In this document: positions 5,378-22,720 of the stretch, piece by piece
How positions within the stretch are numbered: the stretch's first letter is position 1
Layout of the letters: every line of letters begins with the position of its first letter
NCBI GenBank assembly: GCA_963792965.1
Contig: CAWBYW010000018.1
Coordinates: 91,262-155,261 of the forward strand
Direction: 5' to 3'
Length of the DNA: 64,000 nt
Source: an uncultured delta proteobacterium
Lineage (GTDB): Bacteria; Desulfobacterota; Zymogenia; Zymogenales; Zymogenaceae
Notes under the pieces: generated by a model
What the model saw: the letters and a program-made list of their open reading frames with translations, nothing else
What the model was told of the DNA's origin: nothing
Databases searched by the model: none
Position numbers and translations under genes: made by a program

Positions 5378-5395
5378 TTGGCCTGATACTTGCTT
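5378..5395 (+). promoter_or_regulatory. Putative sigma54 (-24/-12) promoter of the EPS/RiPP operon
   Basis: TTGGCCTGATACTTGCTT has exact GG-N10-GC spacing, in an AT-rich intergenic region just after a sigma54 activator gene. Confidence 0.65.
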
Positions 5396-5621
5396 ATTGT
5401 ATTGATAGGTGGACGGGACGCAATAGAGACAGGCACGCATCGGCTCGGCCACGGTATTAAGAGGAATCGACGCTGAGAAGATGGAGATAAGTTAGCTAAA
5501 AAAGATTGTAAATATACATAAAATGGTATAGATTTATACGCCATTAGTGGAGCAATTGCAACGCCCCACACCTGGTGTATGATGAATATGTTTAAGACAC
5601 TATTCGTTGAAAGGTACACCG

Positions 5622-6449: not shown

Positions 6450-7479
6450 GGACCTGTTCGGGAAGTCGGACGTAAAGAATAAGAAGAGCGACAAGATCAT
6501 CATCAGTGAAACCCTGACCGCCGACGATATCATCGGAGGTCGAATATCCGACGGACTGAGGTCCCCCACCACGATGGAGGAGGAAGAGGCGAAAATATTC
6601 CTGGGGAAGATCTACGCCGCCCTCGAGAAGGCGTATGCCGTCGTGAAAGAGGGGAAAATCTTCGGGGTCCAGCCATTTGAGACGCTCGCGGAAAAATTCG
6701 TCGATTCCATCGGAAAATACGACAATATCTTCATGTTGGCGGCTTATAAAGACTACGAAGAGACCGATCACGTCAACAACTGCCTCTGGACGGCTCTCAT
6801 CGCAGTCAAGATAGGGAGACGCCTCGGGCTCGGGAAAAAGGAGCTCATCGAGCTTGCCCTCTGCGGCTTTTTCCACGATATCGGCCAGGAGCGCCTCAAC
6901 AACGGTGTTCTCGTCAAGCATGGGGAGCTGACCGGCCCAGAGCGCGAGGAGGTTCGGAGGCATCCCGAATACGGCAGGGATATCCTGTTTTCCCTCGGGG
7001 AACCGCACCGCTATATCTCGGATACGGCTCTTCAGGAACACGAGCGGCTGGACGGATCCGGATATCCGTCGGGGCTGACCGGCGGGGAGATTTCTCTCTA
7101 CGCCAAGATCATCGGTCTTGCCGACACCTACGAGGCGATGACCCACTCGCGGCCTTACCATACGCGCAAGCTCCCGCTCTTCGTCATCAAGGAGATCGTC
7201 GAGAAGATGAGGGAGCAGTTCGATACGAAAGTGATCAAGGCCTTCCTCGAGGAGATCACGATGTTTCCGGTCGGGAGTTTCGTCCGGCTCAACAACCGGG
7301 AGGTGGGGAGGGTCATCGCCGCCATGAAGGGGGCGCACTTCCGCCACGTGGTGCAGATCCTCTTCGGGCCGGACGGTGAGCGGCTCATTAAACCCAAGGC
7401 GATTAACCTCATGGAGGCCCATCTCCTCTACATTACGGAGCCCGTTGACGAACGAAATCTAAGAAGAGACACGATATGA
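6418..7479 (+). CDS. HD-GYP domain protein (c-di-GMP phosphodiesterase-like)
   Basis: FHDIG, HERLDGSGYPSGL, ADTYEAMTHSRPY. Confidence 0.85.
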   Translation: MVRISDIIKDEDLFGKSDVKNKKSDKIIISETLTADDIIGGRISDGLRSPTTMEEEEAKIFLGKIYAALEKAYAVVKEGKIFGVQPFETLAEKFVDSIGKYDNIFMLAAYKDYEETDHVNNCLWTALIAVKIGRRLGLGKKELIELALCGFFHDIGQERLNNGVLVKHGELTGPEREEVRRHPEYGRDILFSLGEPHRYISDTALQEHERLDGSGYPSGLTGGEISLYAKIIGLADTYEAMTHSRPYHTRKLPLFVIKEIVEKMREQFDTKVIKAFLEEITMFPVGSFVRLNNREVGRVIAAMKGAHFRHVVQILFGPDGERLIKPKAINLMEAHLLYITEPVDERNLRRDTI

Positions 7480-8157
7480 AGACACGACATCTCATCATCT
7501 TATGCCCTTACGGCGCTCATGGCGGCGTCATGCGCCGGGACCGGCGGCATCCACGCCAATACGGTTCCGTCCAAGCCCGAGGACGCCGTCCGTTACCAGC
7601 ACCGGATCATACCCGGTGACAGCATCCACATTACCCTGTGGGAGGTGGATCAGCCCAAGGAGATCAACGCCCAGGTCAAGAACGACGGCACGATCGATAT
7701 CATGTTCATAAAGGGTCTCAAGGTCATGGGGCTCACCGAAGAGGAGCTCAATACGTTCCTGACCAAGGAGCTCTCTTTCTACTACGTGAACCCACAGTTC
7801 ACGGCGTCGCTCAATGCGTACGTTTATCTGCTGGGAGAAGTCAAAACCCCGGGCGCCTACACCTTTGAAAAGGGCCAGAGCCTTGTGGCGGTCCTGGCCG
7901 TCGCCGGCGGACCGACCAAAGACGCGAAGCTCAGAAACACCCTCATCATCCGGGGTGACTATCACAACAATCCGACGGTCATCGTCGCCGACACGTCACG
8001 GCTGCTAAAGTCGGGGGACCTCTCCGAAAATGTCATCCTCCAGGCGGGCGACATAATCTATGTGCCGTCCAAGGTAATAGCGGACGTAAACTACTACATC
8101 ACGCAGATCACCCCCCTCCTGGATTTATTCCTGCTGGGCGCGGTGTTCGGTATGTGA
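7476..8157 (+). CDS. Polysaccharide export lipoprotein (Wza/Poly_export + SLBB), +1 frameshift near 7505
   Basis: IIPGDSIHITLW, VYLLGEVKTPG, LQAGDIIYVP; ATG 7476 overlaps the previous stop and gives signal peptide MKTRHLIILCLTALMAAS-C if one C is removed. Confidence 0.85.
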
Positions 8158-8268
8158 ATGAGGAGTGTTCTCGCGTATCGGCTGTCTCGAACTCGGAAAG
8201 TAGTGCCTATCGGGCTCGAGAGCGGTATAGAGGCGAAAGATTTATTCACTTAAAACGGTAACTCACCC

Positions 8269-10539
8269 ATGCCCCAATATGAGATTCAGCTGAAAGACCT
8301 CATCCGGATCCTCAAGAAACGGAGAAAGATCGTCCTTTTCTCGATGGTCACCCTCGCGGTCCTGAGCGTCATCTTTGCCAAGATCCAGTCCCCCACACAG
8401 TTGTACCAGTCCATTTCAAAGGTACGGTACGACCAGACGCGGTCCCTGGCGGGGATAACCACGCCGATCTACTACTTCTCTCCCTACGACAACATCAATT
8501 CTCAGACGAAGATCATCACAAGCTACCCTGTCCTGGAGATGACCGCCAAGAAGCTCGGCTATTTGAACAAGAATCTGAGATCTCAGGATATCCTCAGTTC
8601 CAAGGAGCATATGTCCGTCGTCTCGGGCCTTGAAGGCCAGATCGGCACGGAGATCGAGGAAAACACGAATATCATCGACATCAAGGTCACCTCGGTCGAT
8701 CCCAAGATGGCCGCCGATATCGCCAACGCGGTGGCCGAAAGCTACCGTGACTACAACCGCGACCAGATTAACAAGCGGACGATAGATACGAAGGACTTCA
8801 TCGAAAAGCAGTTGAGCCTCGTCAGCCAGCGGCTTAAGGAAGCCGAGGAGAATCTGAAGAATTTCCAGCAGAATCGAAATATCGTGGTGCTCGACACCCA
8901 GACCAATAACGACCTTCAGTCGCTGGCGCTCCTCCAGACCGACTACGATAAGCTGGACCGGGAAAACAGCAACCTGCTGGCATTCAAGAACAAGGTTACG
9001 TCAAAGAATGTGAGCGGCAAGGAGCTCTTCCCCATCCTTGAGATGGACGTCAACAGCAACCTCTACACCCTGAATGCCGAGCTGCAAAAGCTCCTCTTGG
9101 AGCGCGACGAGCTCATGACGGTATACACCATCAATCACCCCAAGGTCGCCGACCTGAATGATAAGATCAACAATATCCTCGCCCTGATCGGCTCGGATAT
9201 CAACACGCGGGTCTCTTCCAACAGGGTACGCATGGGGACTCTCAACCACGATATCGACAAGTATAAGGGACGGGCCGCCGAATATCCCGATGATAACCTT
9301 ACGCTGGCCAAATATCAACGGGAGGTGAAGCTACAGAGTGACCTCTACGCCGAGCTTGCCTCGAAGTACCAGGAGATCCTCATCCAGGAGTCCGGAATGG
9401 TTGAGGAGGTGGGTATCGTGGCGCCCGCTCTCGTTTCTGAATTGCCCATCAATCCGCCGAAGATATTCTCCTCGTTCCTCATCGGCCTTCTCCTGGGCCT
9501 CTTCCTCGGCGTCTTCTTTGCAATCATTATGGAGAACCTCGACACCTCCATCGGCGCCATCGAAGACGTGGAGAGCTACCTCGGCATCCCCGTCCTCGGG
9601 GTGATCCCCTACATCGAGCCATACGTTGAGGAACAAAAGGGCGAAGAAAGGATCGAAAGGCCGACCGGAGATAAGCGCAAGGAGTCTCTCCTCGTCATCT
9701 CGATGAGCCCCACGTCGCTCGCGACGGAGGCCTACCGCTCTCTCAGGACGAATATTATCTTCCTGAACCAGGAAAAAGGGATCAAGACCTTCATGATCAC
9801 CAGCTCCTCGCTCCAGGAGGGGAAGACCATCACGTGCATTAACACCGCCATCACGCTGGCCCTCGGCGGATACAGGACCCTTCTGGTGGAAGCGGACCTG
9901 CGCCGTGCCACAATTGCAAAGACCCTCGGAATCGAGCGTTCGCCCGGCCTCTCGGAGGTGATCCTCGGGATTGACTCGGCAAAAGAGGTGACACGGGATA
10001 TTAACGACATCATCCTCGGCGGGCTCGAAATGGACACCCTTATGAAGTCGCCCGAGCTTGCCAACCTCTTCGTCATCACCTCCGGCGCCTTCCCGACAAA
10101 CCCCGCAGAGCTGCTGAGCTCAAAGCAGATGATGAAGTTCATCGAGGAGGCCAAGGCCGAGTACGACTTCATCATCTTTGATAGCACACCGGTGTTGCCT
10201 GTTACGGACGCCGTGTTACTGTCTCAGAAAGTCGATGGCGTGATTATCCTCTACGAGGTGGGGAAGATCGCCCGCGGGGTGCTCAAGAGGACCAAGTCCC
10301 ACCTCGACAACGTGAAGGCCAACGTGCTGGGGGTCATACTCAACAACGTAAGGCCGGAGTATGGGCCCGACTATTACAGCTACCATTACCAGTATTATTA
10401 CGAGGAGGGCAAGCATCCCCGGAAGCTCGGCGAATGGGAAAAGATCAAGGAATATTTCTCGAAGGATAGCCTGAGGCGGTTTGCCTCAGACACCCGAGAG
10501 AAACTCTCGAAGACTTTTCAAAAAAAGGAAATGCGGTAG
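8269..10539 (+). CDS. Wzc/GumC-type polysaccharide co-polymerase with BY-kinase domain
   Basis: Two TMs around a coiled-coil domain, EAYRSLRTNI, Walker A SSLQEGKT, DSTP Walker B, Tyr cluster YGPDYYSYHYQYYY. Confidence 0.9.
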   Translation: MPQYEIQLKDLIRILKKRRKIVLFSMVTLAVLSVIFAKIQSPTQLYQSISKVRYDQTRSLAGITTPIYYFSPYDNINSQTKIITSYPVLEMTAKKLGYLNKNLRSQDILSSKEHMSVVSGLEGQIGTEIEENTNIIDIKVTSVDPKMAADIANAVAESYRDYNRDQINKRTIDTKDFIEKQLSLVSQRLKEAEENLKNFQQNRNIVVLDTQTNNDLQSLALLQTDYDKLDRENSNLLAFKNKVTSKNVSGKELFPILEMDVNSNLYTLNAELQKLLLERDELMTVYTINHPKVADLNDKINNILALIGSDINTRVSSNRVRMGTLNHDIDKYKGRAAEYPDDNLTLAKYQREVKLQSDLYAELASKYQEILIQESGMVEEVGIVAPALVSELPINPPKIFSSFLIGLLLGLFLGVFFAIIMENLDTSIGAIEDVESYLGIPVLGVIPYIEPYVEEQKGEERIERPTGDKRKESLLVISMSPTSLATEAYRSLRTNIIFLNQEKGIKTFMITSSSLQEGKTITCINTAITLALGGYRTLLVEADLRRATIAKTLGIERSPGLSEVILGIDSAKEVTRDINDIILGGLEMDTLMKSPELANLFVITSGAFPTNPAELLSSKQMMKFIEEAKAEYDFIIFDSTPVLPVTDAVLLSQKVDGVIILYEVGKIARGVLKRTKSHLDNVKANVLGVILNNVRPEYGPDYYSYHYQYYYEEGKHPRKLGEWEKIKEYFSKDSLRRFASDTREKLSKTFQKKEMR

Positions 10540-10559
10540 CCCGCAGGAAGGCCGTCATC

Positions 10560-11963
10560 GTGGGAACAGCTCGACATACATCGGAAGGGAATCTGACCAA
10601 TTTCTCCACCTCCATCGCCCTCGGCATCATGGTCATCATGATCTCCGTCCTGGCCTTCTTGATTTCCGGCGGGATGCAGCTCAAGATGGTGGTCATGGTG
10701 GTCGGCATCATCGCCACCGCCATCTGTTTTTTCAACACCGAGATGGCCCTCTACCTCATCCTCTTTGCCATGCTCTTTTCGCCGGAGTTTTCCTTTGGCG
10801 GAGAACTGGCGGAGGGTAGGAAGCTCGTCCTTAGGGTCGAGGATATTATCATCGTCGTCACCTTCTTTTCGTGGGTGGTCAAGACCGTCCTCTACGAAGG
10901 TGTGGGTCTGATCGTCAAGACCCCCCTGAACCGGCCCATTAAGCTCTACGTCTTCGTCTCCTTTCTCTCCACCTTCCTGGGGGCGCTTATCGGCAAGGTG
11001 AACCTCTCCTCCGGGCTCCTCTACGTCTTTAAGTATATGGAGTTTTTCCTGGTCTACTTTATGTTCGCCAACAACATTACGGACCGGGACCAGGTCAAGC
11101 GGTTTATCATTGCGGCCTTTATCGTGGCGATCTTCACGGCGCTCTACGCCGTCGCCCAGATCCCCTTCGGGGGCAGGGTCACCGCTCCCTTTGAGGGCGA
11201 AAGCGGCGAGCCCAACACGCTCGGAGGGTATCTCATCCTGATTATCTCGATAGCCGCCGGACTCTGGTTTGTCATGCGGGATCAGCGGCTGAAAATTGCG
11301 CTGGCCTCGCTCGTGGTCCTTATGACTGTTCCGTTCCTCTTTACCCTCTCGCGTAGCTCGTACGTCGCCGCCATCCCGATGTTTGCGGCCTTTTTCATCT
11401 TCACCAACAAGAAACTGCTGCTCTCCTTTGTCCTGCTCGCCTTTGTGCTGGCGGCGCCCATCCTTCTTCCCGAAAAGATCAAGGAGCGGGTCTCGGAAAC
11501 CTTCGTGCCCGACCCCGGTTTTGCCCAGACCCAGACCATCGGAAACGTCGGGTTTGACACCTCCACGTCGGAACGGATCTCATCGTTTAAGTATTCCATT
11601 GAGAAGTGGCAAAAGCGGCCCATCTTCGGATGGGGCGTTACCGGCGTCGGCATCATCGACAGTACCTATTTCCGCCTCCTGGCCGAGGTAGGCCTCGTGG
11701 GACTGGCCGCCTTTCTATATCTGATCTCCGTCATCGGCCTGCACCTCTACCATATCTTCAAGAAGTCGCAGGATCCGCTCTTGAAAGGGCTTGCCCTCGG
11801 GATGCTCGCCGGGACCGCGGCGCTCCTCGGGCATAGCGTGGGCGCGGCATCCTTCATCATCGTCAGAATCATGGAGCCCTATTGGTTCTTCATGGCCTGT
11901 ATCGTTGCCCTCTACCAGATCGAACAGAGTTATCCGCCCGCTCCACAAAAGGAACTCGCGTGA
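10560..11963 (+). CDS. O-antigen ligase/Wzy-like polymerase
   Basis: Polytopic membrane protein; EPNTLGGYL, FTLSRSS, PIFGWG, AEVGLVG. Confidence 0.8.
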   Translation: MGTARHTSEGNLTNFSTSIALGIMVIMISVLAFLISGGMQLKMVVMVVGIIATAICFFNTEMALYLILFAMLFSPEFSFGGELAEGRKLVLRVEDIIIVVTFFSWVVKTVLYEGVGLIVKTPLNRPIKLYVFVSFLSTFLGALIGKVNLSSGLLYVFKYMEFFLVYFMFANNITDRDQVKRFIIAAFIVAIFTALYAVAQIPFGGRVTAPFEGESGEPNTLGGYLILIISIAAGLWFVMRDQRLKIALASLVVLMTVPFLFTLSRSSYVAAIPMFAAFFIFTNKKLLLSFVLLAFVLAAPILLPEKIKERVSETFVPDPGFAQTQTIGNVGFDTSTSERISSFKYSIEKWQKRPIFGWGVTGVGIIDSTYFRLLAEVGLVGLAAFLYLISVIGLHLYHIFKKSQDPLLKGLALGMLAGTAALLGHSVGAASFIIVRIMEPYWFFMACIVALYQIEQSYPPAPQKELA

Positions 11964-13138
11964 GATTTGGCTATTTTCTCAAGATGCTCCCCTCCCGTAT
12001 GTCGACTTTCATTCACCGGGAGATCGCCTGGCTCCGGTCGCAGGGGCACGAGGTATACCTCTTCCCCGTCTGGGACATCGACCCAAACGACCTCCCCGAG
12101 ACTATAACGGGGTCCCCCGACTATATCATCGCTCGTACTTCGCTCGTATCGTTGGGCTGGGTGCCTGCCCTCGCTCGCTTCTCCCTTACCTCTCCGCTCA
12201 GGGTCGCGCGGATAGTCGCCGGCTACCGCCGTCTCTACGGGATCGCGTTTGTCCTCAAATCGATCGAGGCCGCCCGACTGATTCAAAGAAAGAGGATCGA
12301 GCGTATCTGCGCCCACACCCTTTCACTGGCCGCTTCGCGGGCACGCATCTGTTGGCTCCTGACGGAGATTCCCTACAGCATTACCGTCCACGGCTCGGAT
12401 CTCCTCCTCTTCCCCCCCCGGGACGGCCCGGAATTAATCCGGGATGCACACGTCGTCATCACCCCCACGGAATTTAACAAGAAGCGGCTTCAGGAGATAG
12501 CCGGCCCGTCCGCGAAAGAAAATATCAGGGTAATCCCCTACCCGGTGGATACCGACTTCTTCCGGCCCGAAACAACGAAGCTCGCGCGTATGGGAGAGAT
12601 GCGACTGATCACGGTGGGGAGGCTCCATCCGGTGAAGGGACACCGGTATATCCTCCGGGCCGTCGATACGTTGCGGCGGGAGGGAGTCGCCCTTTCCCTG
12701 AAAATCGTGGGCGAGGGGGAGGAAAGGACCGGGCTCGAGGCCGAAGTGAAAAAGCTGGGCCTCGAGAGCTACGTAGTATTCACCGGCGCCCTCTTCGGCG
12801 CCGAGCTGCGGGACCAGTTGGCCGCGTCGGACATCTTTGTCCTGGCCAGTCACTCCGAGGGCCTCCCGGTATCGATGCTGGAGGCAATGGCGACGGGCCT
12901 CTGCGTAGTGGTTCCCGCCGTGACCGGGATCCCGGAAATGGTGCGCGACGGACAAAACGGCCTCCTCTTTACCCCCCAGGACCCCGTCGATCTGGCCGAG
13001 AAGCTGCGCCATGCCGCTGGCGACGCGGGCCTCAGGCGTCGGCTCGGGAAAGAGGCGCGCACCTCCGTCGTCTCGCGGTGCAGCGGCGATGCGGTCTACC
13101 GAGAGATCCTGCGTGCCGTCGGGGGGGTCAAGGAATGA
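11960..13138 (+). CDS. Glycosyltransferase family 4
   Basis: TVHGSD, VGRLHPVKG, SHSEGLPVSMLEAMA; GTG start overlaps previous TGA. Confidence 0.9.
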   Translation: MRFGYFLKMLPSRMSTFIHREIAWLRSQGHEVYLFPVWDIDPNDLPETITGSPDYIIARTSLVSLGWVPALARFSLTSPLRVARIVAGYRRLYGIAFVLKSIEAARLIQRKRIERICAHTLSLAASRARICWLLTEIPYSITVHGSDLLLFPPRDGPELIRDAHVVITPTEFNKKRLQEIAGPSAKENIRVIPYPVDTDFFRPETTKLARMGEMRLITVGRLHPVKGHRYILRAVDTLRREGVALSLKIVGEGEERTGLEAEVKKLGLESYVVFTGALFGAELRDQLAASDIFVLASHSEGLPVSMLEAMATGLCVVVPAVTGIPEMVRDGQNGLLFTPQDPVDLAEKLRHAAGDAGLRRRLGKEARTSVVSRCSGDAVYREILRAVGGVKE

Positions 13139-14289
13139 CGGTCGCGGATCTCACATTCGCCTCTAACGCGCGCACGATCACGAGCCATGCCGTTCGGGAC
13201 ACGTGGGCCTCGATGATGGGCCAGCCCCCCCACCCGCTCGATATTCCGAGCGGTCCGCTCCCCGCCGACCTTATCCCCTTTTCGGCGGCAAAGGGCTCCC
13301 TCGGGCCCGTGATGCAGGCACTTTCCCGCTGGGGGCTCGCGGGGCGCTTGGAAGAAAGGGAGCGAACGAGGGCCGAGGTCGCGCTCGTCCGCGCGGGGAT
13401 GTCGGTGGCCGCGATGCGGTCGGAGCTCGCCCGGATACTCGGGGCGTGCGCCGCGGAGCAGGTCGATGTGGTTATCCTGAAGGGCCACGATCTCCTCGTC
13501 AGGTACTACGAGAGCGATACCATCCGCCCCGTCACCGACGCCGACCTCCTCATCAGGCGACGTGACTACCCGAAGCTCGGTAGGATACTCACCGACGCCG
13601 GCTATCGCACCCCGGGGGGAGAGAGGACGAGCGTCTGGTCGCGGGGTGGTTTCATCATCGATGTTCATTTCGCCTTCGTCAACGACGTGAGGAACCCGAT
13701 GAGCGCATTCCTGCCGCAGATCCCGGCCGGGGAGATCTTCGCTCGCGCCGAGAAAAGGGAGATCGAAGGCGCCGCATACCTCTCACCCGACCCCGGCCAC
13801 AGCCTCATCATCACCGCGCTCCATGCGATGACCCACTCCTACCTGAAGGACTACTGGTTCTTGGACGCCGGGACGCTCCTGATCAGGAACGCCGAGCCGT
13901 CGTTTGTGGATCGGTGTCGGGCACTCGCGGAAGAACATCGGCTGACCGGTGTGCTGGGCCCCATGCTCTGGGCCCTCCGGGAGCACTTCGCCTTCAGGCC
14001 GGACTCGGGCAGGGGCAAGGAATATCGCGTCTCGCTCCCCGTCCGGCGTCTCATCGGTGCGGCGATGCGAAGCACCGACTACCTCTTCTTCGGCGATCTC
14101 CTGCTCGGATTGTCTGTTGACAGCTACAAAAAAAAGTTCTATTATTTTAAGGAGATGGCCTTCCCCCACCGGGACGTCGTCGCGCGGGAGAGGGGTGTCG
14201 GCATCACAGGGGCGGCCCCCTTATTTCTTTCCCGATCCCTGCACCTGGTGAGGTCAGGATTTCACATCCTCATCAAAGGACGGCGATAA
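13135..14289 (+). CDS. Nucleotidyltransferase family protein (NTP_transf_5-like)
   Basis: VILKGxxL, RPVTDADLLI (DxD), IDVH; ATGA overlap with GT4. Confidence 0.75.
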   Translation: MTVADLTFASNARTITSHAVRDTWASMMGQPPHPLDIPSGPLPADLIPFSAAKGSLGPVMQALSRWGLAGRLEERERTRAEVALVRAGMSVAAMRSELARILGACAAEQVDVVILKGHDLLVRYYESDTIRPVTDADLLIRRRDYPKLGRILTDAGYRTPGGERTSVWSRGGFIIDVHFAFVNDVRNPMSAFLPQIPAGEIFARAEKREIEGAAYLSPDPGHSLIITALHAMTHSYLKDYWFLDAGTLLIRNAEPSFVDRCRALAEEHRLTGVLGPMLWALREHFAFRPDSGRGKEYRVSLPVRRLIGAAMRSTDYLFFGDLLLGLSVDSYKKKFYYFKEMAFPHRDVVARERGVGITGAAPLFLSRSLHLVRSGFHILIKGRR

Positions 14290-14906
14290 TGGCCGTATTC
14301 CTTCGCGCGGCGTCCCGATTTCACACGATCATACGGAATTTCGTAAGGCTCTACCTCCTCTTTAACGAGAAAGAAGTGTGTTCCGTCCGGGATTCGATTG
14401 TCCGCTGCGAATGTGAAGGTGACGAGATGGTACTGTTTGGCCTCGATGACCGTAGGGCGCATCTCCTCAACCATACCGCCGCCCGAGTTCTCGGGCTTAC
14501 CGACGGGAGGAGGTCCGTCGGAGATATCGCCGCGCGTATCGCCTCCGATTTCGGGGAGAAAAAGGGGGTCGTCGGGCGCGACGTGAAAAGGATCTGTCGG
14601 GACCTTTATCTCAAAGGGGTGATCACTATGGCGCACGAACGTTCGTATGTACCGAAGATAAAAAAAGAGACCGTCGTCCGCGAAGAGGACGACGGAGCAT
14701 GTATCTTTGACCCGCTGACCGATGAGCTTTCGGCGATCAACGAGACAGGTAGAATCGTCCTGAAACAGATGAACGGGAAAAACAGTATCGCACAGATCGC
14801 GAAGAAGGTCAGGGCTGTCTTCCCCGACCAGGAAGAGGAGAAGATATACCGGGACGTTGAGGCGTTCATAGATGAGCTGAAGAATCGGGGCTTTCTTACC
14901 GTATGA
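14289..14906 (+). CDS. Tandem PqqD/RRE-domain protein (ScmD-like)
   Basis: Two PqqD-like units: LLNHTAARVLGLTDGRRSVGDIA...DVKRICRDLYLKGVI and REEDDGACIFDP...INETGRIVLKQMNGKNSIAQIA...DVEAFIDELKNRGFL. Confidence 0.82.
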   Translation: MAVFLRAASRFHTIIRNFVRLYLLFNEKEVCSVRDSIVRCECEGDEMVLFGLDDRRAHLLNHTAARVLGLTDGRRSVGDIAARIASDFGEKKGVVGRDVKRICRDLYLKGVITMAHERSYVPKIKKETVVREEDDGACIFDPLTDELSAINETGRIVLKQMNGKNSIAQIAKKVRAVFPDQEEEKIYRDVEAFIDELKNRGFLTV

Positions 14907-14971
14907 TCCGCCTGTCGAGGCCCCAGATAATCAGCTTCTCTTCAAGACGTACGATATAAGGGGAACTCATC

Positions 14972-16267
14972 GTGGTAAACAGATCAGTCCTAAAGAAAGA
15001 AAAGGGAAACACTCCCATCCCCACAAGCATGCTGCGCGCACCGCTGTCCCTCTTTATCTCGATCACCTCGCGCTGCAACCTCTCGTGCCGCCATTGCGCC
15101 GTCTATTCGGACGACCTTACGTATGACCCGGATCTCACCACCTCACAATGGCTCTCCTTCATCGACCAGATCGTCCGTCTCAGGGTCTTCCGCGTCAAGA
15201 TCAGCGGCGGAGAGCCGTTCGCGCGAAAGGACATCTTCGATATCCTCGATCACCTTTTCACGCAGCCGATCCGTGTCTCGATTAATACCAACGCCATGCT
15301 TATCGATGAGGATGCCGCCCGGCATCTCTCGTCGTACGGGCCAAAGCTCTCCGACCTCATGGTGAGCATTGACGGGGGCTCCCCCGAAACCCACGACGCC
15401 CTTCGGGGGCGAGGGGCATTTCGGGAGATGCTGAAGGGGGCTGGGCATCTGGTCGAACACGTGAGAAAACTCACCGCCTATTGCACGGTGACCCGCCTCA
15501 ATTTCAGGGAGCTCGGGGACGTGGCGCGTCTGGCCTCGGAAATCGGGATAAGTGGTCTAAAATTTAACGACCTTATCCCCCTGGGGCGTGGGCTTAAATA
15601 CCGGGATGATCTTGATCTCACGCGGGAGGAGAAACGAGAAACCACTACACGCCTCAAGGCGCTGCAAAAGACGTATCCCTTCATATCGGGGACCCTCTTT
15701 GAGGTAGACGAGATATTCGAGAAGATCGGGTCGACAGCTCCCGAAAAGCTGGCGGAGTCGTCGGAAATGGAACACTGCCTTTCGGGATGCGGCGCGCTCA
15801 ACAACGAATGCGCCATCAGGCCCGACGGATGGGCGACCCCCTGTGACCGCCTCCCGGAGCTCACGGCGGAGAATATCCTTGAGGTGCCGCTCGACGTGAT
15901 CTGGAGGGAGTCGCAGACGTTTACGGAATTCCGCCGGCGTTTTACCACCCCTATCACAAGCCTCAGCACGTGCTCGGATTGTCAGTTTGCCCCGGTTTGC
16001 ACAGGAGGATGCGCCGCGTCGGCCTTTGCGGCGTACGGCACGACGCTTGCGCGCGACCCCTCGTGCTGTTACAGGCTCTACGAGGAGGAGACGGCTGATG
16101 CGCCGCATAAATCGACGCGAATATCCTCTCCGTCGCGCGTACCTCTATGTTTCCGGCGGGTGCAACCTCCGCTGCGCCCATTGCTGGATATCTCCGGCCT
16201 TCGTGGCCGAGGGCCGTGTACAACGAGATCAGCTGACGGCCGCCGACGTAAAGAAGGTCATCGATGA
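14972..16267 (+). CDS. Radical SAM/SPASM protein, ScmE-like
   Basis: CNLSCRHC (CxxxCxxC), SGGEP, VSIDG; SPASM Cys SGCG..TPCD..CSDCQFAPVCTGGC..CC; true end may be near 16098. Confidence 0.88.
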   Translation: MVNRSVLKKEKGNTPIPTSMLRAPLSLFISITSRCNLSCRHCAVYSDDLTYDPDLTTSQWLSFIDQIVRLRVFRVKISGGEPFARKDIFDILDHLFTQPIRVSINTNAMLIDEDAARHLSSYGPKLSDLMVSIDGGSPETHDALRGRGAFREMLKGAGHLVEHVRKLTAYCTVTRLNFRELGDVARLASEIGISGLKFNDLIPLGRGLKYRDDLDLTREEKRETTTRLKALQKTYPFISGTLFEVDEIFEKIGSTAPEKLAESSEMEHCLSGCGALNNECAIRPDGWATPCDRLPELTAENILEVPLDVIWRESQTFTEFRRRFTTPITSLSTCSDCQFAPVCTGGCAASAFAAYGTTLARDPSCCYRLYEEETADAPHKSTRISSPSRVPLCFRRVQPPLRPLLDISGLRGRGPCTTRSADGRRRKEGHR

Positions 16268-17186
16268 GGGCCGTCCGATAGGCCTTCTCAGCGTCAAGCT
16301 CACCGGGGGGGAACCGTTTATCAATGACGAGATATTCGAGATAATTGAGCTGATCGGCGGCCGGGAGATCTCGATGTTTATCGAAACCAACGGGACCCTG
16401 ATCGACCGGGATACCGCGGCCTTCTTGAAAAGACAGGGGATAAACTCCGTCAGCGTGAGCGTCGACAGCAATCGCTCCTCCTTTCATGATGCCTTCCGCG
16501 GGGTGGCGGGGGCGCTGGACGGTGCCGCCTCGGGCGTAGAGCACCTCGTATCCGAGGGTATATCGGTGCAGGTCATCATGAGCCTGGTCAGGGAAAACTC
16601 CCGTGACATCGAAGGTCTTATTGATTTGGCAAAGCGGCTCGGAGCGCATTCGGTGAAGATCAACCCGGTGACCCCGATCGGAAGGGGCGGAGTCCTGTCC
16701 GACCGAGGCGACACGCTGGGGGTCGAGGAACTCCTCGAACTCTCACCGTGGGTGGAGGGGCAGCTCTCGCGTCAGTACGGGATCGAGACCTTCTTCACCG
16801 TTCCGTCCGTCTTTAAGCCGATCGGCCACCTGTTTGACGAAAGGAACGCCCAGTGCCATATCCTGACGATCATCGGCATCCTTGCAAACGGCGATGTTTC
16901 GATTTGCGGCATTGGGAGGGAAGTGCCCGCCCTCGTGATGGGAAATATCCGTACGGATAACCTGGAACAGATCTGGCGGGAAAGCTCCATCCTCGGTGAT
17001 CTCAGACAGATCGTGCCGAATAACTTGGAGGGAATCTGCGGTCGGTGCATCATGAAGGGGATATGCATGGGGTCGTGCCGGGCGGACGCCTATGTCCTTT
17101 CGGGGAGCCTTGCGGCGCCTCACTGGATCTGCCGGGAGGCGCTCGATAAAGGACTCTTCCCGAAAAATAGACTGTTAAGCCAATGA
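16098..17186 (+). CDS. Radical SAM/SPASM protein, ScmF-like
   Basis: GAGGAGG RBS before ATG 16098; GCNLRCAHCWISP, KLTGGEP, SICGIG, EGICGRCIMKGICMGSC, APHWICREALDKGLFP resemble SynChlorMet ScmF as I recall it. Confidence 0.88.
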   Translation: MRRINRREYPLRRAYLYVSGGCNLRCAHCWISPAFVAEGRVQRDQLTAADVKKVIDEGRPIGLLSVKLTGGEPFINDEIFEIIELIGGREISMFIETNGTLIDRDTAAFLKRQGINSVSVSVDSNRSSFHDAFRGVAGALDGAASGVEHLVSEGISVQVIMSLVRENSRDIEGLIDLAKRLGAHSVKINPVTPIGRGGVLSDRGDTLGVEELLELSPWVEGQLSRQYGIETFFTVPSVFKPIGHLFDERNAQCHILTIIGILANGDVSICGIGREVPALVMGNIRTDNLEQIWRESSILGDLRQIVPNNLEGICGRCIMKGICMGSCRADAYVLSGSLAAPHWICREALDKGLFPKNRLLSQ

Positions 17187-18139
17187 TTGCGAGGATCGGA
17201 GGCATATCGATCAAGCTTTCCGTCCCTGGGGACCGGGCGTCGTCCGAAAGGATTCTGGAAGAGGTCAACGGCAGACTATCCGGCTTCACCGCTAAAAGGG
17301 GACGGCATAACCTCATGCTTACGATCAGGCCGGTGGACGATCTCCCCTGGGAGGAGATACTTTGCAAAGAAGACCTCATACGGGCGCGCCGAATCGTGGA
17401 TGTCCTGAGAAGGAGGTTCCCTCTTACGAGGATACCGTTTGAGAATATGCATACGAGCAATCCATCGCACATAAAGGGAAGAATTTCCTCCGACCTCCTC
17501 TCCCGCTTCTGCAGGGGAGGTGTTTCGGTCATCCCGCAGGGCGGTTTCCTCCTGGCCGTTGACCACCGAAGCGGATACGGAGAGGTCTTCGTTAAGCGGC
17601 GCGAAGAGGGAGGCCTCGTCCCCTCGTTCATGAGCGCCCTGCAGGGCGCCCTCGGTCTGTGCGCCTCGTACCATGACGCCCTCATGCTCCACGCGAGCTC
17701 CCTTGCGATTGACGGGAGGGGATTTGTCTTTATCGGCGCATCGGGGGCCGGCAAAACTACAATAGCCTCGTCGGTCGCCCCGGAGGCGGTGCTCTCAGAC
17801 GATGGGTCCTGGTGTTCGCGGATGGGCGGTAGATTTTACCTGTATCGAACGCCCTTTTCCCAGATAGACACTGGGCCCCCTCTCGCAGACCGGACTCCTC
17901 TTGACCGGCTCCTCTTTCTCGGGAAGAGCGAGCACAACTATATCGCCGGCCTCTCGCCGGGCCGGGCCATGACAATGCTGCTTCTCAATCACATCCACTT
18001 CTTCCGATATATGGACCGGGAGGGAGCATTTAAGGCCTTCGGCCTTGTGGAGGAGCTATGCCGGAAGAACCGGGCCTTCACCCTCTTTTTTAATCGGAGT
18101 TTTAATCCGATGTCATTTTTCAGGGGAATAATCGAATGA
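17183..18139 (+). CDS. HPr-kinase-like P-loop protein (ScmC-like)
   Basis: LHAS...GASGAGKTT...LSDD signature of HprK-related proteins; TPF downstream. Confidence 0.72.
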   Translation: MIARIGGISIKLSVPGDRASSERILEEVNGRLSGFTAKRGRHNLMLTIRPVDDLPWEEILCKEDLIRARRIVDVLRRRFPLTRIPFENMHTSNPSHIKGRISSDLLSRFCRGGVSVIPQGGFLLAVDHRSGYGEVFVKRREEGGLVPSFMSALQGALGLCASYHDALMLHASSLAIDGRGFVFIGASGAGKTTIASSVAPEAVLSDDGSWCSRMGGRFYLYRTPFSQIDTGPPLADRTPLDRLLFLGKSEHNYIAGLSPGRAMTMLLLNHIHFFRYMDREGAFKAFGLVEELCRKNRAFTLFFNRSFNPMSFFRGIIE

Positions 18140-18357
18140 AAGAAAAAAAGACGTATGAGCCGCCGATGGTCATAGATCTTCAGGTCGACTATACCCAGGC
18201 GGTGGGACAGTCACGCTGCAACGCCGGGCCCACAGCCACCGGGCAGTGCACCACCGGGCCGCAGGCGAACCGCACATGTGGCACGGGCACCCAATTTACG
18301 CCGTTCTGCGGAAACGGCCAAACCGCCAACGGCTGCAACACCGGTAAGACTCCGTAG
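18136..18357 (+). CDS. Candidate RiPP precursor peptide with five CxxG repeats
   Basis: ATGA overlap with upstream gene; leader KKTYEPPMVIDL (YxxP); Cys at residues 28, 38, 48, 58, 67, each as CxxG. Confidence 0.82.
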   Translation: MKEKKTYEPPMVIDLQVDYTQAVGQSRCNAGPTATGQCTTGPQANRTCGTGTQFTPFCGNGQTANGCNTGKTP

Positions 18358-18395
18358 CGGCAGCTGTTCCGACCGACTTCAAAGGAGCAGGAGCG

Positions 18396-18839
18396 GTGAG
18401 GCAGTTTAGACGAATCCGATTCCGTGGATACAGCATGTACCCGGCGCTGCGCCCGGGCGACACGCTGATCCTTCGCCCAGTGTTGAGCGGCGAGTGTGCC
18501 AGGGGTGATATCGTCTGCGTCCCCGGCGAACGCAATTTCACCACCCACCGCGTCGTCGAGATCAATCGGAGCTCGGCCGGTCCCATGCTCATCACCAAGG
18601 GAGACAACCTCCCCTACTTCGATTCGCCCATCGTCCTCCCCTCGGAAGGGATTCATCGGGTCGCCATGATCTGCCGCCCGGGACGGGGACCCACCAGACC
18701 CCGTTTCGGGAGGACACGTGCCCTCCTCTCCCGAAATAACCTGACGGTAGGTATCATACAGGGGAGGATCGGGCGCCTCATAAGGGGCACGTATGGACGT
18801 GTTCGGAATTTACTTAATAGGAAACCCAACCGCACATGA
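18396..18839 (+). CDS. S24/S26-family signal-peptidase-like protein
   Basis: GYSMYPALRPGD (catalytic Ser), THRVV (His), ITKGDN; no N-terminal TM. Confidence 0.8.
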   Translation: MRQFRRIRFRGYSMYPALRPGDTLILRPVLSGECARGDIVCVPGERNFTTHRVVEINRSSAGPMLITKGDNLPYFDSPIVLPSEGIHRVAMICRPGRGPTRPRFGRTRALLSRNNLTVGIIQGRIGRLIRGTYGRVRNLLNRKPNRT

Positions 18840-20419
18840 ACCGGATCGATAAATCCCTCTTCCGCGTCTGCCAGGTGACCCTGGCAAACCTCCTGAAAAC
18901 TACGGCCGCAAGGTTCAGGGATCGGGAGGCGATCTCTTGTTCTGTAACGGGCCGACGCTTCTCGTTTCGAGAGGTAAACGAGCGGATGAATCGGCTCGCC
19001 AATGCCCTCCTCTCGTTGGGGGTCAAGAAAGGAGATCATTGCGCGTTTCTCTGCCGCAACCGGGCCGAGACGGGAGAGATCTACGGCGCCCTCATCAAAA
19101 TCGGGGCGATCGCCGTACCGCTGCACTGGAGCCTTGAGATTGAAGAGATCATCGACTACCTCACGTTTACCCAGGCCCGGCATTTCCTGTTTGAGGATTT
19201 CTATACCGAGGCCGCTATCGTGATCAAAAAGCGCCTCAGGCGCATCAAGACGTTCGTCTGCATCGGGAAACAGGAGACCGACTTTGCCCTCCCCTACGAG
19301 GAGCTGATCAGCGGATCGTCCCCCGTTCTTCCCTTCATCGACGTGAATGCCGACGACGTCCAGGGCATCGATACAACCTCCCGGACGACCGGTGTCCATA
19401 AGGTCTATCCCCTCACCCACGCAAACGGCCTGAGCGCCGTCATGTTCTTCACGTCGATCCACGAGTTGACGAAAGATGACGTCATCCTGACCCTCTTCCC
19501 CCTCTACGGGCGCGTGGGCCTTGCCTGGTATGGTGCGGGATTTTTGACCGGGGCCCGCAACGTCCTGTTTCAACCGGACATGACCGATCCATCCGGCATT
19601 TTGCGGATCATACAGGACGAGCGCATCACCATAACCAACTGGACCCCGATTGTCGCGTCTATCCTCCTCACGCTCCCGGATCTGGATCGATACGACCTCT
19701 CGTCCCTCAGAGCGATCTCTTTTTCGGCAAGCCGCTTTCCCGTCGACCTGCAAAAGGAGGTGAGGGATCGCATCTGCCCCGACATCTACGAATATTACGC
19801 CATGCAGGAGGCCGGCATCATTGCCCACATGGGGCCCGAGGACAAGCGGAAAAATCCCGCCTCCGTGGGAACCCTCTGCTTCGGGACCGACGTGCGCATC
19901 GTGGACGAGGCCGGGAAAGATGTGGCCACCGGCGAAATCGGCCAAATCATCTGCAGGGCCCTCTCCGCCGCACCAGGGTATTTCAGGAATGACGCGCAGA
20001 CGCGATCGGCTTTCAGGGACGGCTGGTTTTACACCGACGACTGGGGGCGGTTTGATGAAGACCAGTTCTTCTATTTCTTAGGCAGGAGGGAGGACATGAT
20101 CGTGACGGGGGATACGACGGTCTTCGCGGCGGGTATCGAAGAGGTCCTTACCGCCCACGAGGGGGTCCTGGACGCCGCGGTCATCGGGCTGCCGGATGAT
20201 ACGCTCGGTGAGGCCGTGACGGCGGTGATAGTGAGAAACCCGAAGGGAGACGTGACGAGAGAGGCGCTGACCGTCTGGTGTCGGGAGAGGCTTACCCCGC
20301 ACCAGGTGCCCCGGCGGATCATCTTTTCCGCGATGCTCCCCCGCAACGCCGTCGGCAAGGTAACCAAGTATGTGCTGGTCGAGAGGTTCTCCCGTGAGGG
20401 CGCTCACACCGACGGATAG
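18836..20419 (+). CDS. ANL-superfamily AMP-binding (acyl-CoA synthetase-like) protein with degenerate motifs
   Basis: Overall fold signature and C-terminal LPRNAVGK; P-loop reads TTSRTTGVHK, plus YAMQE and YTDDWG. Confidence 0.8.
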   Translation: MNRIDKSLFRVCQVTLANLLKTTAARFRDREAISCSVTGRRFSFREVNERMNRLANALLSLGVKKGDHCAFLCRNRAETGEIYGALIKIGAIAVPLHWSLEIEEIIDYLTFTQARHFLFEDFYTEAAIVIKKRLRRIKTFVCIGKQETDFALPYEELISGSSPVLPFIDVNADDVQGIDTTSRTTGVHKVYPLTHANGLSAVMFFTSIHELTKDDVILTLFPLYGRVGLAWYGAGFLTGARNVLFQPDMTDPSGILRIIQDERITITNWTPIVASILLTLPDLDRYDLSSLRAISFSASRFPVDLQKEVRDRICPDIYEYYAMQEAGIIAHMGPEDKRKNPASVGTLCFGTDVRIVDEAGKDVATGEIGQIICRALSAAPGYFRNDAQTRSAFRDGWFYTDDWGRFDEDQFFYFLGRREDMIVTGDTTVFAAGIEEVLTAHEGVLDAAVIGLPDDTLGEAVTAVIVRNPKGDVTREALTVWCRERLTPHQVPRRIIFSAMLPRNAVGKVTKYVLVERFSREGAHTDG

Positions 20420-20469
20420 GCTGCCTTGCCGCGCACATGACCGTCGAGATGCCACGATAAGGCGCGTTA

Positions 20470-21228
20470 TCACGCGCCGATCGGGATCACCATCAGGTCC
20501 CGGGCGACGGTGACCCTCCCCGAAAAGCGCTTCCCCACCACCCCGGCGACGTCCACCCCTTCCATCGGGGGATAGAGGTGGGTCAAAACGAGGTGCCCCA
20601 CGTGTGCCCGGGCCGCGATCTCGGCGGCCTCCGACGGCGTCAGGTGCCCCGGCACCTTCATCTCGTCAGGGAATGAGCACTCGATCAGCAGCAGATCGGC
20701 CCCTTCCGCAAGGCCGATCAACTCCTCCGACCAGTCCGTGTCGCCCGAATAGACGAGCGCCGCGTTGTCCCCCTCGAACCGGAAGGCGATGCTCTCCGGA
20801 TTGTGGTTAACGGGGGCCGTCGAGACGGAAAAGGACCCGCCGTCAAGCGTGTCCCGCCGCATCTCCTTTATGTCGATCCGGTAGTCGCCGGGCACGATCC
20901 ACGCCCCGAAGACCTCGATCAGGCCGCTGTAAAGCTCGCCGAATCCCTCCGGCGCAAGGATCATCAGGTCGTCCGTCCGGTGGCTCCCGACGGCGTACTT
21001 GGAGGCGAAGACGAGCGGGACGAAGTCGGCAACGTGGTCGGGATGAAAGTGGGAAAGGCAGACGAGGTCGATGTCGCCGATCTCTACACCGACCTCCACG
21101 GTCCTGCGCAGCGCCCCCGGCCCGAGGTCAATCAAGACCGTTTTTCCACCCAGCCTCAACAGATGCGCCGGGGACCAGCGCGCCGTGGATGGGACGATCG
21201 TCCCTGAGCCGAGTATAGTCAGTTCCAT
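20470..21228 (-). CDS. MBL-fold metallo-hydrolase (RNase Z/BN-like)
   Basis: LTILGSG, SHFHPDH, YSGDT, GHLTP, LTHLYP. Confidence 0.85.
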   Translation of the reverse strand: MELTILGSGTIVPSTARWSPAHLLRLGGKTVLIDLGPGALRRTVEVGVEIGDIDLVCLSHFHPDHVADFVPLVFASKYAVGSHRTDDLMILAPEGFGELYSGLIEVFGAWIVPGDYRIDIKEMRRDTLDGGSFSVSTAPVNHNPESIAFRFEGDNAALVYSGDTDWSEELIGLAEGADLLLIECSFPDEMKVPGHLTPSEAAEIAARAHVGHLVLTHLYPPMEGVDVAGVVGKRFSGRVTVARDLMVIPIGA

Positions 21229-21234
21229 ATCCTT

Positions 21235-21262
21235 ATTGTATGATTACTGAGTGACAAGTCAA
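21235..21262 (-). promoter_or_regulatory. Sigma70-type promoter of the MBL hydrolase gene (probably leaderless)
   Basis: TTGACT-N16-TACAAT ending 6 nt before the ATG. Confidence 0.5.
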
Positions 21263-21343
21263 CAAAAAAGGTGAAAAGCGCCGGCGCGGCCGATGATCAC
21301 ACGTCCCTTTTCGTGCCCAACTGTACAATCGGAAGAAATTTCG

Positions 21344-21370
21344 TTGACATATCTCAACCCTTGATATAAT
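21344..21370 (+). promoter_or_regulatory. Sigma70-type promoter of the ROK operon
   Basis: TTGACA-N15-TATAAT with extended -10 TGaTATAAT. Confidence 0.55.
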
Positions 21371-21463
21371 GTTATCTCAGACGATGAGGTAATATCGTCG
21401 CGATATGAGCGGTTTCAGCCGCCAGAGGCCGAACCGCGGCAAAGAGTCTGCAACACTCGGGGG

Positions 21464-22720
21464 TTGCCCGTGATACCGGTAAATGATCAGAAAGCCGTGA
21501 GGACCAACAATCAGCTGTCCATCCTCAACGCGTTGAAGGGTGCCGGCCCCATGTCGCGCAGGCGTCTCCAGGGCGCGACGGGCCTCAGTTGGGGGACGAT
21601 AACCTATCTGGTGAACGAGCTGATCGATCTTCAGATCGTCCGGGAAGTTGGAATGCTTGCCACGGGCGTCGGCAGGCCGCCGGTCGATCTGGATCTGAAC
21701 ACGGAGGCCAACTTCGTCATCGGAATCTGGATGGGAGACCGGCACGTGGATGCGTTGATGCTCGACATAAAGGGCCGCGCGGTGCGCGAGCTCTCTCTCC
21801 CCCTGGATCCATCGGCCCATTCAGAAGCCATCGTCCGGCGTCTCTTTGGAGTGGTCGATACCCTGATCGAGCAGGGCTCTGTTGGGTGCTCGTCGATCGC
21901 CGGGATCGGGTGCGCCGTGCCGGGCTCATATAACCCGGCGACGGGCGTCTGTGCGTATGCACCTAACCACCCGCACTGGCGCGATGTACCGCTCTTGAGC
22001 CTCTTCACGGAGCGATATCACAGGCCCGTCTTCATTGACCACGACATGAATTGCTGCGTGCTGGGCGAGCATTTCTTCGGCGACACCGGGCGCTTTTCCA
22101 ACTTCGTCTGTGTGAATATCGAGGGGGGCATTGGGGCGGGCATCATGATAAACGGCGAGGTCTACCGGGGCGCTGACAACTCCGCCGGCGAATTGGGTCA
22201 CATCCTTGTGGCAGACAACGGCCCGCGCTGCAGTTGCGGGAGATACGGGTGCCTGGAGTCCGTCGCATCTGACCGGGCACTTCTGGCGGGGGCCCGCCTG
22301 ACGGCGGCCGGCCGCAAGCGGGACGCTTTCTCCGCAAACCATGCCGGCGACCGCGACATGGGCCTCGAAACAGTCATCGAGGCGGCTCGGCTCGGTGATA
22401 AGGAAGTCCTTTCCCTGTTTGAGGAGATGGGGCACTACCTCGGTATCGGTATCGGTATCCTGATAACGCTCTTTAACCCCGAAAAGGTTATCCTGAGCGG
22501 CGGTATCTTCAGGGCACGGGATTTTCTGCAGACATCAATGAACGCGTCGCTGGGTAAGACGGCGTGGCCCTATGCCCGCGCGGATGTGGGCTTCACCGTT
22601 CTTAAGAACGGCATCGTGCTGGGCGCCGCGGGAATGGTGCTGCAGGAGATTTTCAAGAACGCCCTCCTCCTGCCAGGACAGGCCGTCCGGGGCATCGCCG
22701 CCCGTGGAGACGAGAGGTGA
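21464..22720 (+). CDS. ROK-family transcriptional repressor
   Basis: N-terminal wHTH, GVGRPP, GIGAGI, AGELGH, CSCGRYGCLE. Confidence 0.9.
   Translation: MPVIPVNDQKAVRTNNQLSILNALKGAGPMSRRRLQGATGLSWGTITYLVNELIDLQIVREVGMLATGVGRPPVDLDLNTEANFVIGIWMGDRHVDALMLDIKGRAVRELSLPLDPSAHSEAIVRRLFGVVDTLIEQGSVGCSSIAGIGCAVPGSYNPATGVCAYAPNHPHWRDVPLLSLFTERYHRPVFIDHDMNCCVLGEHFFGDTGRFSNFVCVNIEGGIGAGIMINGEVYRGADNSAGELGHILVADNGPRCSCGRYGCLESVASDRALLAGARLTAAGRKRDAFSANHAGDRDMGLETVIEAARLGDKEVLSLFEEMGHYLGIGIGILITLFNPEKVILSGGIFRARDFLQTSMNASLGKTAWPYARADVGFTVLKNGIVLGAAGMVLQEIFKNALLLPGQAVRGIAARGDER

Follow-up and report, generated by a model that had tools for sequence, protein, structure and literature searches.

The closest described system to the one considered here is SynChlorMet (Scm), a cassette defined in databases whose product is undescribed in the full-text literature searched. 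Queries with the cassette name, the gene names and the accessions TIGR04248-04252 found no paper on the system, subscription papers and supplements being outside the search. Both the Scm cassette type and its putative precursor, ScmA, are already defined in silico; what is new here is a large, regular, and essentially unannotated precursor family. One of its members is encoded in a 64,000-nucleotide stretch of DNA (here called the window) from an uncultured delta proteobacterium of the family Zymogenaceae (GenBank assembly GCA_963792965.1, contig CAWBYW010000018.1, positions 91,262 to 155,261 of the forward strand). A short gene at 18136..18357 of the window (+ strand) specifies a 73-residue peptide with a Y-x-x-P leader and five C-x-x-G motifs. 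We read this peptide, with a probability of roughly 80%, as the ribosomal precursor of a ribosomally synthesized and posttranslationally modified peptide (RiPP), matured by the radical S-adenosylmethionine (rSAM) enzymes of a divergent Scm-type cassette along the whole course proposed below.

Lasso peptides offer a partial parallel, since their leaders carry a YxxPxL motif, their B1 RiPP recognition element (RRE) is PqqD-like, and HprK-like kinases and NTP_transf_5 enzymes accompany some of their clusters. The window peptide is lasso-like in its Y-x-x-P-x-(I/L/V) leader, and for the C-terminal PqqD domain of the cassette NF033530, a lasso PqqD model with a cut-off of 70, gives 54.1 bits, but its Cys-repeat core is unlike a lasso core. 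A lasso system was rejected when Pfam and NCBIfam searches of the open reading frames (ORFs) from 10560 to 22720 revealed no Asn-synthetase-like cyclase and no B2 transglutaminase-like protease.

Iteration on a repeated motif within one precursor has other precedents. In freyrasin (PapA/PapB), six C-x3-D motifs are reportedly each closed into a small thioether ring by a single rSAM enzyme with a SPASM domain. The acceptor there is said to be a conserved Asp, which the repeat family of the window lacks, and the NCBIfam PapB model, whose cut-off is 340, gives the two rSAM enzymes of the window scores as low as 68.8 and 62.5 bits. The TvgA/TvgB chemistry, reportedly a conversion of Val to cyclopropylglycine, differs from that of the window system in motif and reaction and does not involve Cys. 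TvgA/TvgB yields a poly-cyclopropylglycine peptide through an rSAM enzyme that iterates on a short motif present many times in one precursor (PMC9062424). CrpC of Methanococcus voltae makes ranthionine links in the CAGM, CAVD, CAGD, and CPLV motifs of CrpA; CrpC is a SPASM rSAM enzyme with an RRE that forms one small thioether ring per motif, from Cys to a residue about three positions on, and CrpA, like the window peptide, has a leader-like N-terminus followed by a repeated Cys motif (PMC13692751). CrpA differs from the window peptide in its large size and in its repeat, which is 17 residues long and has C-x-x-Q/D motifs, and the Crp system has one rSAM enzyme of another family (TIGR04463), with no ScmC-like or second rSAM gene described there (PMC13692751). 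The likeness between CrpA/CrpC and the window system is one of architecture and of proposed chemistry.

A conserved gene encodes a leader and five CxxG units

The peptide gene starts with the ATG at 18136 and stops with the TAG ending at 18357, for a product of 73 residues. The ATG shares the sequence ATGA (18136-18139) with the TGA stop codon of the preceding 318-codon gene, and AGGGGA, a Shine-Dalgarno-like site, lies 7-9 nt 5′ of it. The leader (MKEKKTYEPPMVIDLQVDYTQAVG, residues 1-24, 18136..18207) carries a Y7-E-P-P10 motif at 18154-18165 and is followed by a core (residues 25-73, 18208..18354) of five C-x-x-G units with spacings of 10, 10, 10, and 9; the boundary between the two is putatively placed after residue 24. 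All five Cys residues, at positions 28, 38, 48, 58, and 67 (codons at 18217, 18247, 18277, 18307, and 18334), open a CxxG motif. Asp and Glu are absent downstream of residue 18, and the 49 core residues include 11 Thr and 9 Gly. A Pfam scan of the 73 residues gave no match.

As a control for chance, all stop-to-stop ORFs of at least 40 residues were collected in six frames from the whole 3.36-Mb genome. Among these 45,735 ORFs, a single one, the peptide gene itself, had five CxxG motifs within 50 residues, while one had four and 22 had three. Tandem Repeats Finder found no DNA repeat between 18000 and 18500, and the period is therefore held at the protein level rather than by recent DNA duplication.

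The region is also spanned by an antisense ORF of 155 residues (18189..18656, − strand) that overlaps the peptide gene and the peptidase gene after it. Since the + frame is conserved in many genomes with insertions and deletions of whole repeats, the antisense frame lacks support and is probably a by-product of G+C-rich coding DNA.

A word-indexed protein search retrieved four homologues with 54-62% identity. Across these five closest sequences, 22 of the 24 leader positions are invariant, and the leader codons differ by synonymous-only changes at 6-10 of 27 positions when the window gene is compared with its four relatives. The closest homologues are further distinguished by one or two whole repeat units, gained or lost in frame. 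The stretch 18136..18357 is thus a genuine, conserved gene with a leader/core architecture.

A large and regular family of precursors, essentially unannotated

A profile made from the five peptides found relatives in 34 of the 401 genomes sampled from the phylum, among them nine of nine from the same family, and two or three copies in one genome are common. We then cut 22 peptides from the loci described below. In all of them the N-terminus is rich in K and the leader reads Y-E-P-P-x-(I/L/V)-x-D-L (family consensus, K-x-Y-E-P-P-x-I-x-D-L), and each contains 4 to 10 Cys and 4 to 10 CxxG motifs. The repeat unit of the family is C-x-x-G-x-x-A/P-x3-4: Gly occupies position +3 after 128 of 130 Cys, position +6 is Ala in 66 and Pro in 35 units (together 101 of 130), and positions +7 to +9 are the most variable. 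Successive Cys are separated by 10 (64 times) or 11 residues (31 times), which accounts for 95 of 108 intervals.

When 1.84 billion representative proteins were searched exhaustively with HMMER, 1,146 matched at E ≤ 1e-3, and 65 of these at E ≤ 1e-10. Among the best 150 library matches, 134 are no longer than 170 residues, and 120 of these 134 display Y..P..h.h within the first 60 residues; across relatives, these 150 included, the number of CxxG motifs ranges from 4 to 12. The long proteins inspected among the top-ranked matches were rejected as family members because they consist of unrelated 10-residue repeats without the leader (e.g., P0007, 816 residues, CPDGSSDVKD), and such decapeptide-repeat proteins were excluded from the alignment set of 135 members. 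In this alignment P10 and C48 are invariant, and conservation is 90% or higher at Y7 and at the remaining Cys and Gly. A [YF]xxP motif precedes the first Cys in 132 of the 135, and the modal Tyr-to-Cys distance, 21, is also that of the window peptide. In the sources, the protein atlas, and the cluster look-up, the only name attached to family members is “hypothetical protein.” The family is thus essentially unannotated, and in both size and regularity it goes far beyond the curated ScmA model.

The initial annotation, made from the window sequence, had described the ORF, its Cys positions, the CxxG motifs, and a Thr/Gly-rich core free of acidic residues exactly as the translation gives them. 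The coupling to the upstream gene that it proposed is seen in the ATGA overlap, and the YxxP motif that it singled out turned out to be the most conserved element of the leader.

Peptide and enzyme genes occur together across genomes

For 20 peptide matches, drawn from 19 other genomes, the surrounding region (at most 20 kb) was compared with the proteins of the window. ScmE- and/or ScmF-like genes were found within the fetched region in 14 of the 20 loci, mostly adjacent to the peptide gene; ScmC-like P-loop genes, which stand next to the peptide gene, and PqqD genes were each found in 12. One contig (L044) ends directly past its P-loop gene. The full order of eight genes seen in the window recurs in five loci of the same taxonomic family (L040, L041, L045, L046, and L047).

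At the level of genomes, an ScmF-type gene was detected at E ≤ 1e-60 in 37 of the 401. Peptide and ScmF were both present in 27 genomes, the peptide alone in 7, ScmF alone in 10, and neither in 357, a tally for which we give no P value, as related genomes are not independent. Six of the seven peptide-only genomes had weak matches (E > 1e-3), and the seventh is a fragmented, 88%-complete genome.

The association was also approached from the enzyme side, with a wider profile and 16 regions fetched around further ScmF genes, 13 of which scored above the 400-bit cut-off. Peptides of the same design were present in 11 of the 16; YxxP-leader CxxG-repeat peptides lie beside a cut-off-passing ScmF in L060, L061, L063, L064, L065, and L068-L072. 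The wider profile found no peptide in the other five regions (L062, L067, L073, L074, and L075). Four of these (L062, L067, L074, and L075) end at contig ends, and in the genomes of L073 and L074 (G345 and G368) a matching peptide is present on another contig. Looking for YxxP/CxxG-repeat ORFs near ScmF homologues was the check suggested by the initial annotation, and the comparative genomics obtained in this way, together with the 14 loci and 27 genomes above, lends good support to its proposal that the peptide is the substrate of the cassette.

In L072, two further ORFs (57-684 and 8705-9193) flank a bona fide Scm cassette. Both have a Cys-repeat C-terminus (..CSAGSDVTRDCVAGPTASRDC..), with long low-complexity stretches (GT-repeat-encoded or DRDW-like) replacing the usual leader.

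The peptide is probably a divergent member of the ScmA type

Of the curated models, NCBIfam TIGR04252 (SynChlorMet ScmA) alone matched the peptide, at 16.5 bits and E 0.0074. Whether a family model already existed had been left to a search, and the answer is divided: TIGR04252 is a model for the putative precursor of such cassettes, but the peptide falls under its cut-off of 35 bits. In architecture, the peptide has the same design as those beside ScmF genes of at least 400 bits, i.e., short, with Y-x-x-P and CxxG repeats. Closer relatives of the window peptide reach 28 bits on the ScmA model, with an alignment that covers YEPP and the first repeats, and residues 7-54 of L019 align to model positions 1-47. 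The model itself spans 49 positions, corresponding to the leader and about 2.5 repeats, whereas the window peptide has five repeats. It matched 42 of the 135 family members at E ≤ 0.01 (best E, 4e-10), and these 135 gave no match to any peptide family other than ScmA. Across the 401 genomes of the phylum it was above cut-off in none, against 14 genomes with a cut-off-passing ScmF. The ScmA model is very narrow. Because of the cassette context, the model alignments of its relatives, and the peptides found beside cut-off-passing ScmF, the window peptide is best regarded as a putative divergent relative of ScmA within an Scm-type cassette rather than as an ScmA equivalog. A second open-frame ScmA match in the genome (L003) was discarded as an off-frame of a 2-oxoacid:ferredoxin oxidoreductase-like gene.

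The cassette as a whole also stays outside the curated definition of SynChlorMet, its ScmD, ScmE, and ScmF matches all being under their cut-offs. The Scm models are the top cassette-specific matches of the PqqD protein, of both rSAM enzymes and, via a homologue, of the P-loop protein. In contrast to SynChlorMet, the window cassette has two PqqD domains fused, its lineage adds an NTP_transf_5 protein, an S26-like protease, and an acyl-CoA ligase, and it is located at the end of an exopolysaccharide locus. The HPr-rel-A system (TIGR04352/TIGR04353 with NTP_transf_5) does not describe it either, with 21.8 bits for the P-loop protein on HprK_rel_A (cut-off 200) and, for the PqqD partner, 17.1 bits on PqqD_rel_X (cut-off 35); the NTP_transf_5 element of that system is present in the window.

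Genes of the cassette and its surroundings

The cassette genes, all on the + strand, follow the order NTP_transf_5, PqqD fusion, two rSAM/SPASM enzymes, P-loop protein, peptide, peptidase, and acyl-CoA ligase. The first cassette gene in this lineage (13078..14289) encodes a 403-residue nucleotidyltransferase of the NTP_transf_5 family (PF14907, 1.4e-28) and holds the same position in L040, L041, L045, L046, and L047. It is followed by a gene (14289..14906) for a 205-residue protein with two fused PqqD/RRE-like domains (PqqD 5.1e-23, in two matched stretches), which scores 48.7 bits on ScmD (TIGR04248, cut-off 100). Its halves align to two neighboring PqqD ORFs in L045, L046, L047, L049, L053, and L058. 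The fusion thus provides two RRE domains in a cassette with two rSAM enzymes.

The first of these enzymes is ScmE-like (431 residues, 14972..16267; CNLSCRHC and CSDCQFAPVCTGGC), with 214.7 bits on TIGR04250, and the second is ScmF-like (15987..17186; Radical_SAM and SPASM domains, CNLRCAHC, CGRCIMKGICMGSC, and flanking Cys), with 358.3 bits on TIGR04251, the cut-off being 400 in both cases. Both have an intact CxxxCxxC and the SPASM motif CxxCx5Cx3C with flanking Cys. The ScmF-like coordinates are counted from the first start codon; since the family model begins at ORF residue 46, the genuine start is probably near 16120. As listed, the two ORFs overlap by about 280 nt, and the overlap would be smaller with the later start. 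A sequence search of the PDB placed SkfB and PqqE nearest to the ScmE-like enzyme, as distant relatives only, and returned no match at 1e-10 for the ScmF-like one. Outside Scm, the best matches of the two enzymes are mycofactocin maturase, the heme b synthase AhbD, NirJ, and PqqE.

The 318-residue P-loop protein (17183..18139), whose Walker A motif is GASGAGKTT and whose gene is coupled in translation to that of the peptide, had no match to ScmC at E ≤ 0.01, and its homologue in L058 reached 37.4 bits on TIGR04249 (cut-off 125). Its AlphaFold2 model (pLDDT, 88.6) was matched by Foldseek to phosphoenolpyruvate carboxykinases (PEPCK) and HPr kinase (HprK) as the best PDB entries, with E values from 1e-6 and TM scores of 0.34-0.45. 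A precomputed annotation, PF27840, is attached to this ScmC-like protein (17183-18139) and to all 19 homologues, and a recent Pfam family may thus describe it already.

Past the peptide gene, 18396..18839 encodes a soluble signal-peptidase-I-like (S26/S24) protease of 147 residues. It contains GYSMYPALRPGD and TKGDN, which we take to be the Ser and Lys boxes of type I signal peptidases, scores 46 bits on TIGR02228 (cut-off 51.85), and is without an N-terminal anchor. The protease gene also lies 3′ of the peptide in L040, L041, L044-L047, and L053, and its product is a candidate leader peptidase. Its stop codon is overlapped by a gene for an AMP-forming acyl-CoA ligase-like enzyme (527 residues, 18836..20419), found downstream only in L040, L041, L045, L046, and L047 and of uncertain membership in the cassette.

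Directly upstream of the cassette (window 335-13138) lies an exopolysaccharide locus with genes for a methyltransferase, a Wzx-like flippase, a response regulator, a sigma-54 activator, Poly_export/SLBB and Wzy_C proteins, a family 4 glycosyltransferase (GT4), and a GNVR chain-length/tyrosine-kinase protein. The Wzy and GT4 genes adjoin the cassette in L040 and L041 too, and not in distant relatives.

Proposed maturation of the peptide and alternative explanations

The peptide shows the hallmarks of an rSAM/SPASM RiPP precursor: two adjacent enzymes with CxxxCxxC and a full SPASM Cys motif, an RRE/PqqD protein, a conserved leader, and a variable core. The steps that follow, from leader binding by the RRE and thioether formation to the tasks of the two rSAM enzymes and the kinase-like protein and the site of cleavage, are inferred. 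The leader, centered on Y-E-P-P-x-(I/V)-x-D-L, would be bound by one PqqD/RRE domain of the 205-residue protein, or by both, and the core would thereby be presented to the ScmE-like and ScmF-like enzymes. These would act once per 10-residue unit (C-x-x-G-x-x-A/P-x3), on or beside the invariant Cys, and most likely each Cys sulfur would be bonded to a neighboring carbon of the same unit, so that five small thioether rings result. A repeated series of small rings, an idea that freyrasin also illustrates, and possibly two different chemistries for the two rSAM enzymes had been suggested by the initial annotation. The second rSAM enzyme could introduce another kind of modification or work on some of the units only. 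An ATP-using accessory step may fall to the coupled P-loop protein (ScmC-like, with an HprK/PEPCK fold), and the soluble signal-peptidase-like protease may cut off the leader after the small-residue stretch A-V-G that precedes the core. The score of a predicted complex between the 205-residue PqqD protein and the peptide was 0.26, where the mark is 0.32, and is counted neither for nor against leader binding.

Several observations weigh against this interpretation. The repeat is without the conserved Asp, Glu, Asn, or Thr acceptor of known ranthipeptides. The 16.5-bit ScmA score is at noise level, unrelated frames of the genome reaching 17.8 and 16.5 bits, so that the tie to ScmA rests on context and architecture. 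A search for sequencing runs found no RNA run and a single DNA run, whose share of words was 0.05. Five of the 20 peptide loci (L042, L043, L055, L052, and L056) have no rSAM gene in the fetched region; three of them (L042, L043, and L055) are orphan copies of the peptide gene from one genus, located far from contig ends. Finally, the two closest cassettes from a scan of species-representative genomes (L006 and L007, with ScmF 65% and 64% identical) have a syntenic ORF that retains the leader and is without the CxxG core past the first Cys, and the ORF of L007 (8130-8345, from a “delta proteobacterium” metagenome-assembled genome [MAG]) has an in-frame TAA in the leader, and the ScmC-like gene of that locus is split. 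The loss of the core in L006 and L007 could be assembly error or decay.

The L006 ORF (8153-8356, from a Zymogenaceae MAG) keeps the leader MKGNRPFEPRAIIDLQVDHTRAVGASRC... and has a run of eight G directly past the first CxxG. The orphan copies (L042:9805-10047, L043:9953-10183, and L055:9911-10117) have Trp-containing units, e.g., CWNG...GWQC, and no Scm-type gene within about 10 kb on either side; the same genomes hold a full cassette elsewhere.

Provided that the peptide is a RiPP precursor, one small thioether ring per unit is our tentative choice of chemistry, at a little short of even odds. We favor it because Cys is the sole invariant reactive residue of the repeat and because CrpC and, reportedly, freyrasin set a precedent. 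Only Gly at +3 and Ala/Pro at +6 are conserved besides, which therefore calls for an unusual thioether acceptor or for a different chemistry. The latter forms the strongest alternative, in which the precursor and cassette are the same and the Cys are not thioether donors: they could be oxidized, in a formylglycine-type reaction like that of anaerobic sulfatase maturases, or serve, e.g., as metal ligands of the product, with C-C or C-O links or epimerization introduced by the enzymes. The lack of a conserved classical side-chain acceptor is in line with this, as are the best non-Scm matches of the two enzymes, which are not thioether synthases, and the retention of two rSAM enzymes in most cassettes, which suggests more than one reaction. 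Against it stand the invariance of Cys as the only reactive residue of the repeat and the fact that, to our knowledge, every characterized SPASM-rSAM RiPP with an invariant repeated Cys involves thioether formation. The thioether precedent of CrpA/CrpC counts in the same direction (PMC13692751). On balance we consider such a non-thioether chemistry somewhat unlikely.

A more specific form of the thioether reading is that the two SPASM rSAM enzymes iterate on the C-x-x-G-x-x-A/P decapeptide and link sulfur to the alpha carbon of Gly or of the +6 Ala/Pro, which would make the window peptide the founding example of a large, unnamed RiPP class. The Gly ring is put forward because Gly at +3 is the only invariant partner of Cys; this more specific reading as a whole is speculative and rather doubtful.

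The strict periodicity of the unit, the free variation in unit number (4 to 12 CxxG among relatives), and the resemblance of the rSAM enzymes to MftC and PqqE would also suit a multi-core precursor, from which each 10-residue unit is modified and excised to give copies of a small cofactor-like or signaling molecule, as with PqqA or MftA. Yet there is no conserved protease site between units, where positions +7 to +9 are the most variable, the sole protease of the cassette is signal-peptidase-like, and units of the same peptide are unlike one another; this makes excision improbable. Less probable still is a small cytoplasmic Cys-rich peptide, not a RiPP, that binds metal or donates Fe-S and merely sits in the operon. 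Regularly spaced Cys with neighboring Gly could bind metals, but the strongly conserved, Cys-free N-terminal leader would be superfluous for that function, the linkage to PqqD/RRE and rSAM/SPASM genes is tight and extends to distant genomes, and a dedicated peptidase gene lies 3′ of the peptide gene. That the ORF, short, without a Pfam match, and overlapped by an antisense frame of 155 residues, arose by chance in G+C-rich DNA is ruled out by its in-frame conservation with repeat-unit insertions and deletions across many genomes, besides being at odds with its uniqueness among 45,735 ORFs and with its Shine-Dalgarno-like site and ATGA coupling.

Implications for the precursor family

The RiPP precursor reading gives natural-product chemists a small, defined substrate of 73 residues, together with an enzyme set, for the action of two SPASM enzymes on a Cys-Gly repeat. 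For annotators, it provides grounds for a broader precursor family model. The grammar of the family is a fixed leader followed by a variable number of C-x-x-G-x-x-A/P units, and its genomic companions are a pair of rSAM/SPASM enzymes, a protein with the PEPCK/HprK fold, and either one RRE domain or two. Should sulfur indeed be linked to the alpha carbon of Gly or of the +6 residue, the ring would be of a type not described so far, and the class would comprise more than 1,000 sequence clusters, mainly in Thermodesulfobacteriota. In the lineage of the window, further processing would involve the P-loop enzyme, which would use ATP, a nucleotidyltransferase, and a leader protease that is cytoplasmic and signal-peptidase-like; the product would be a decorated “string of rings,” perhaps N-acylated, with a link to an exopolysaccharide locus.

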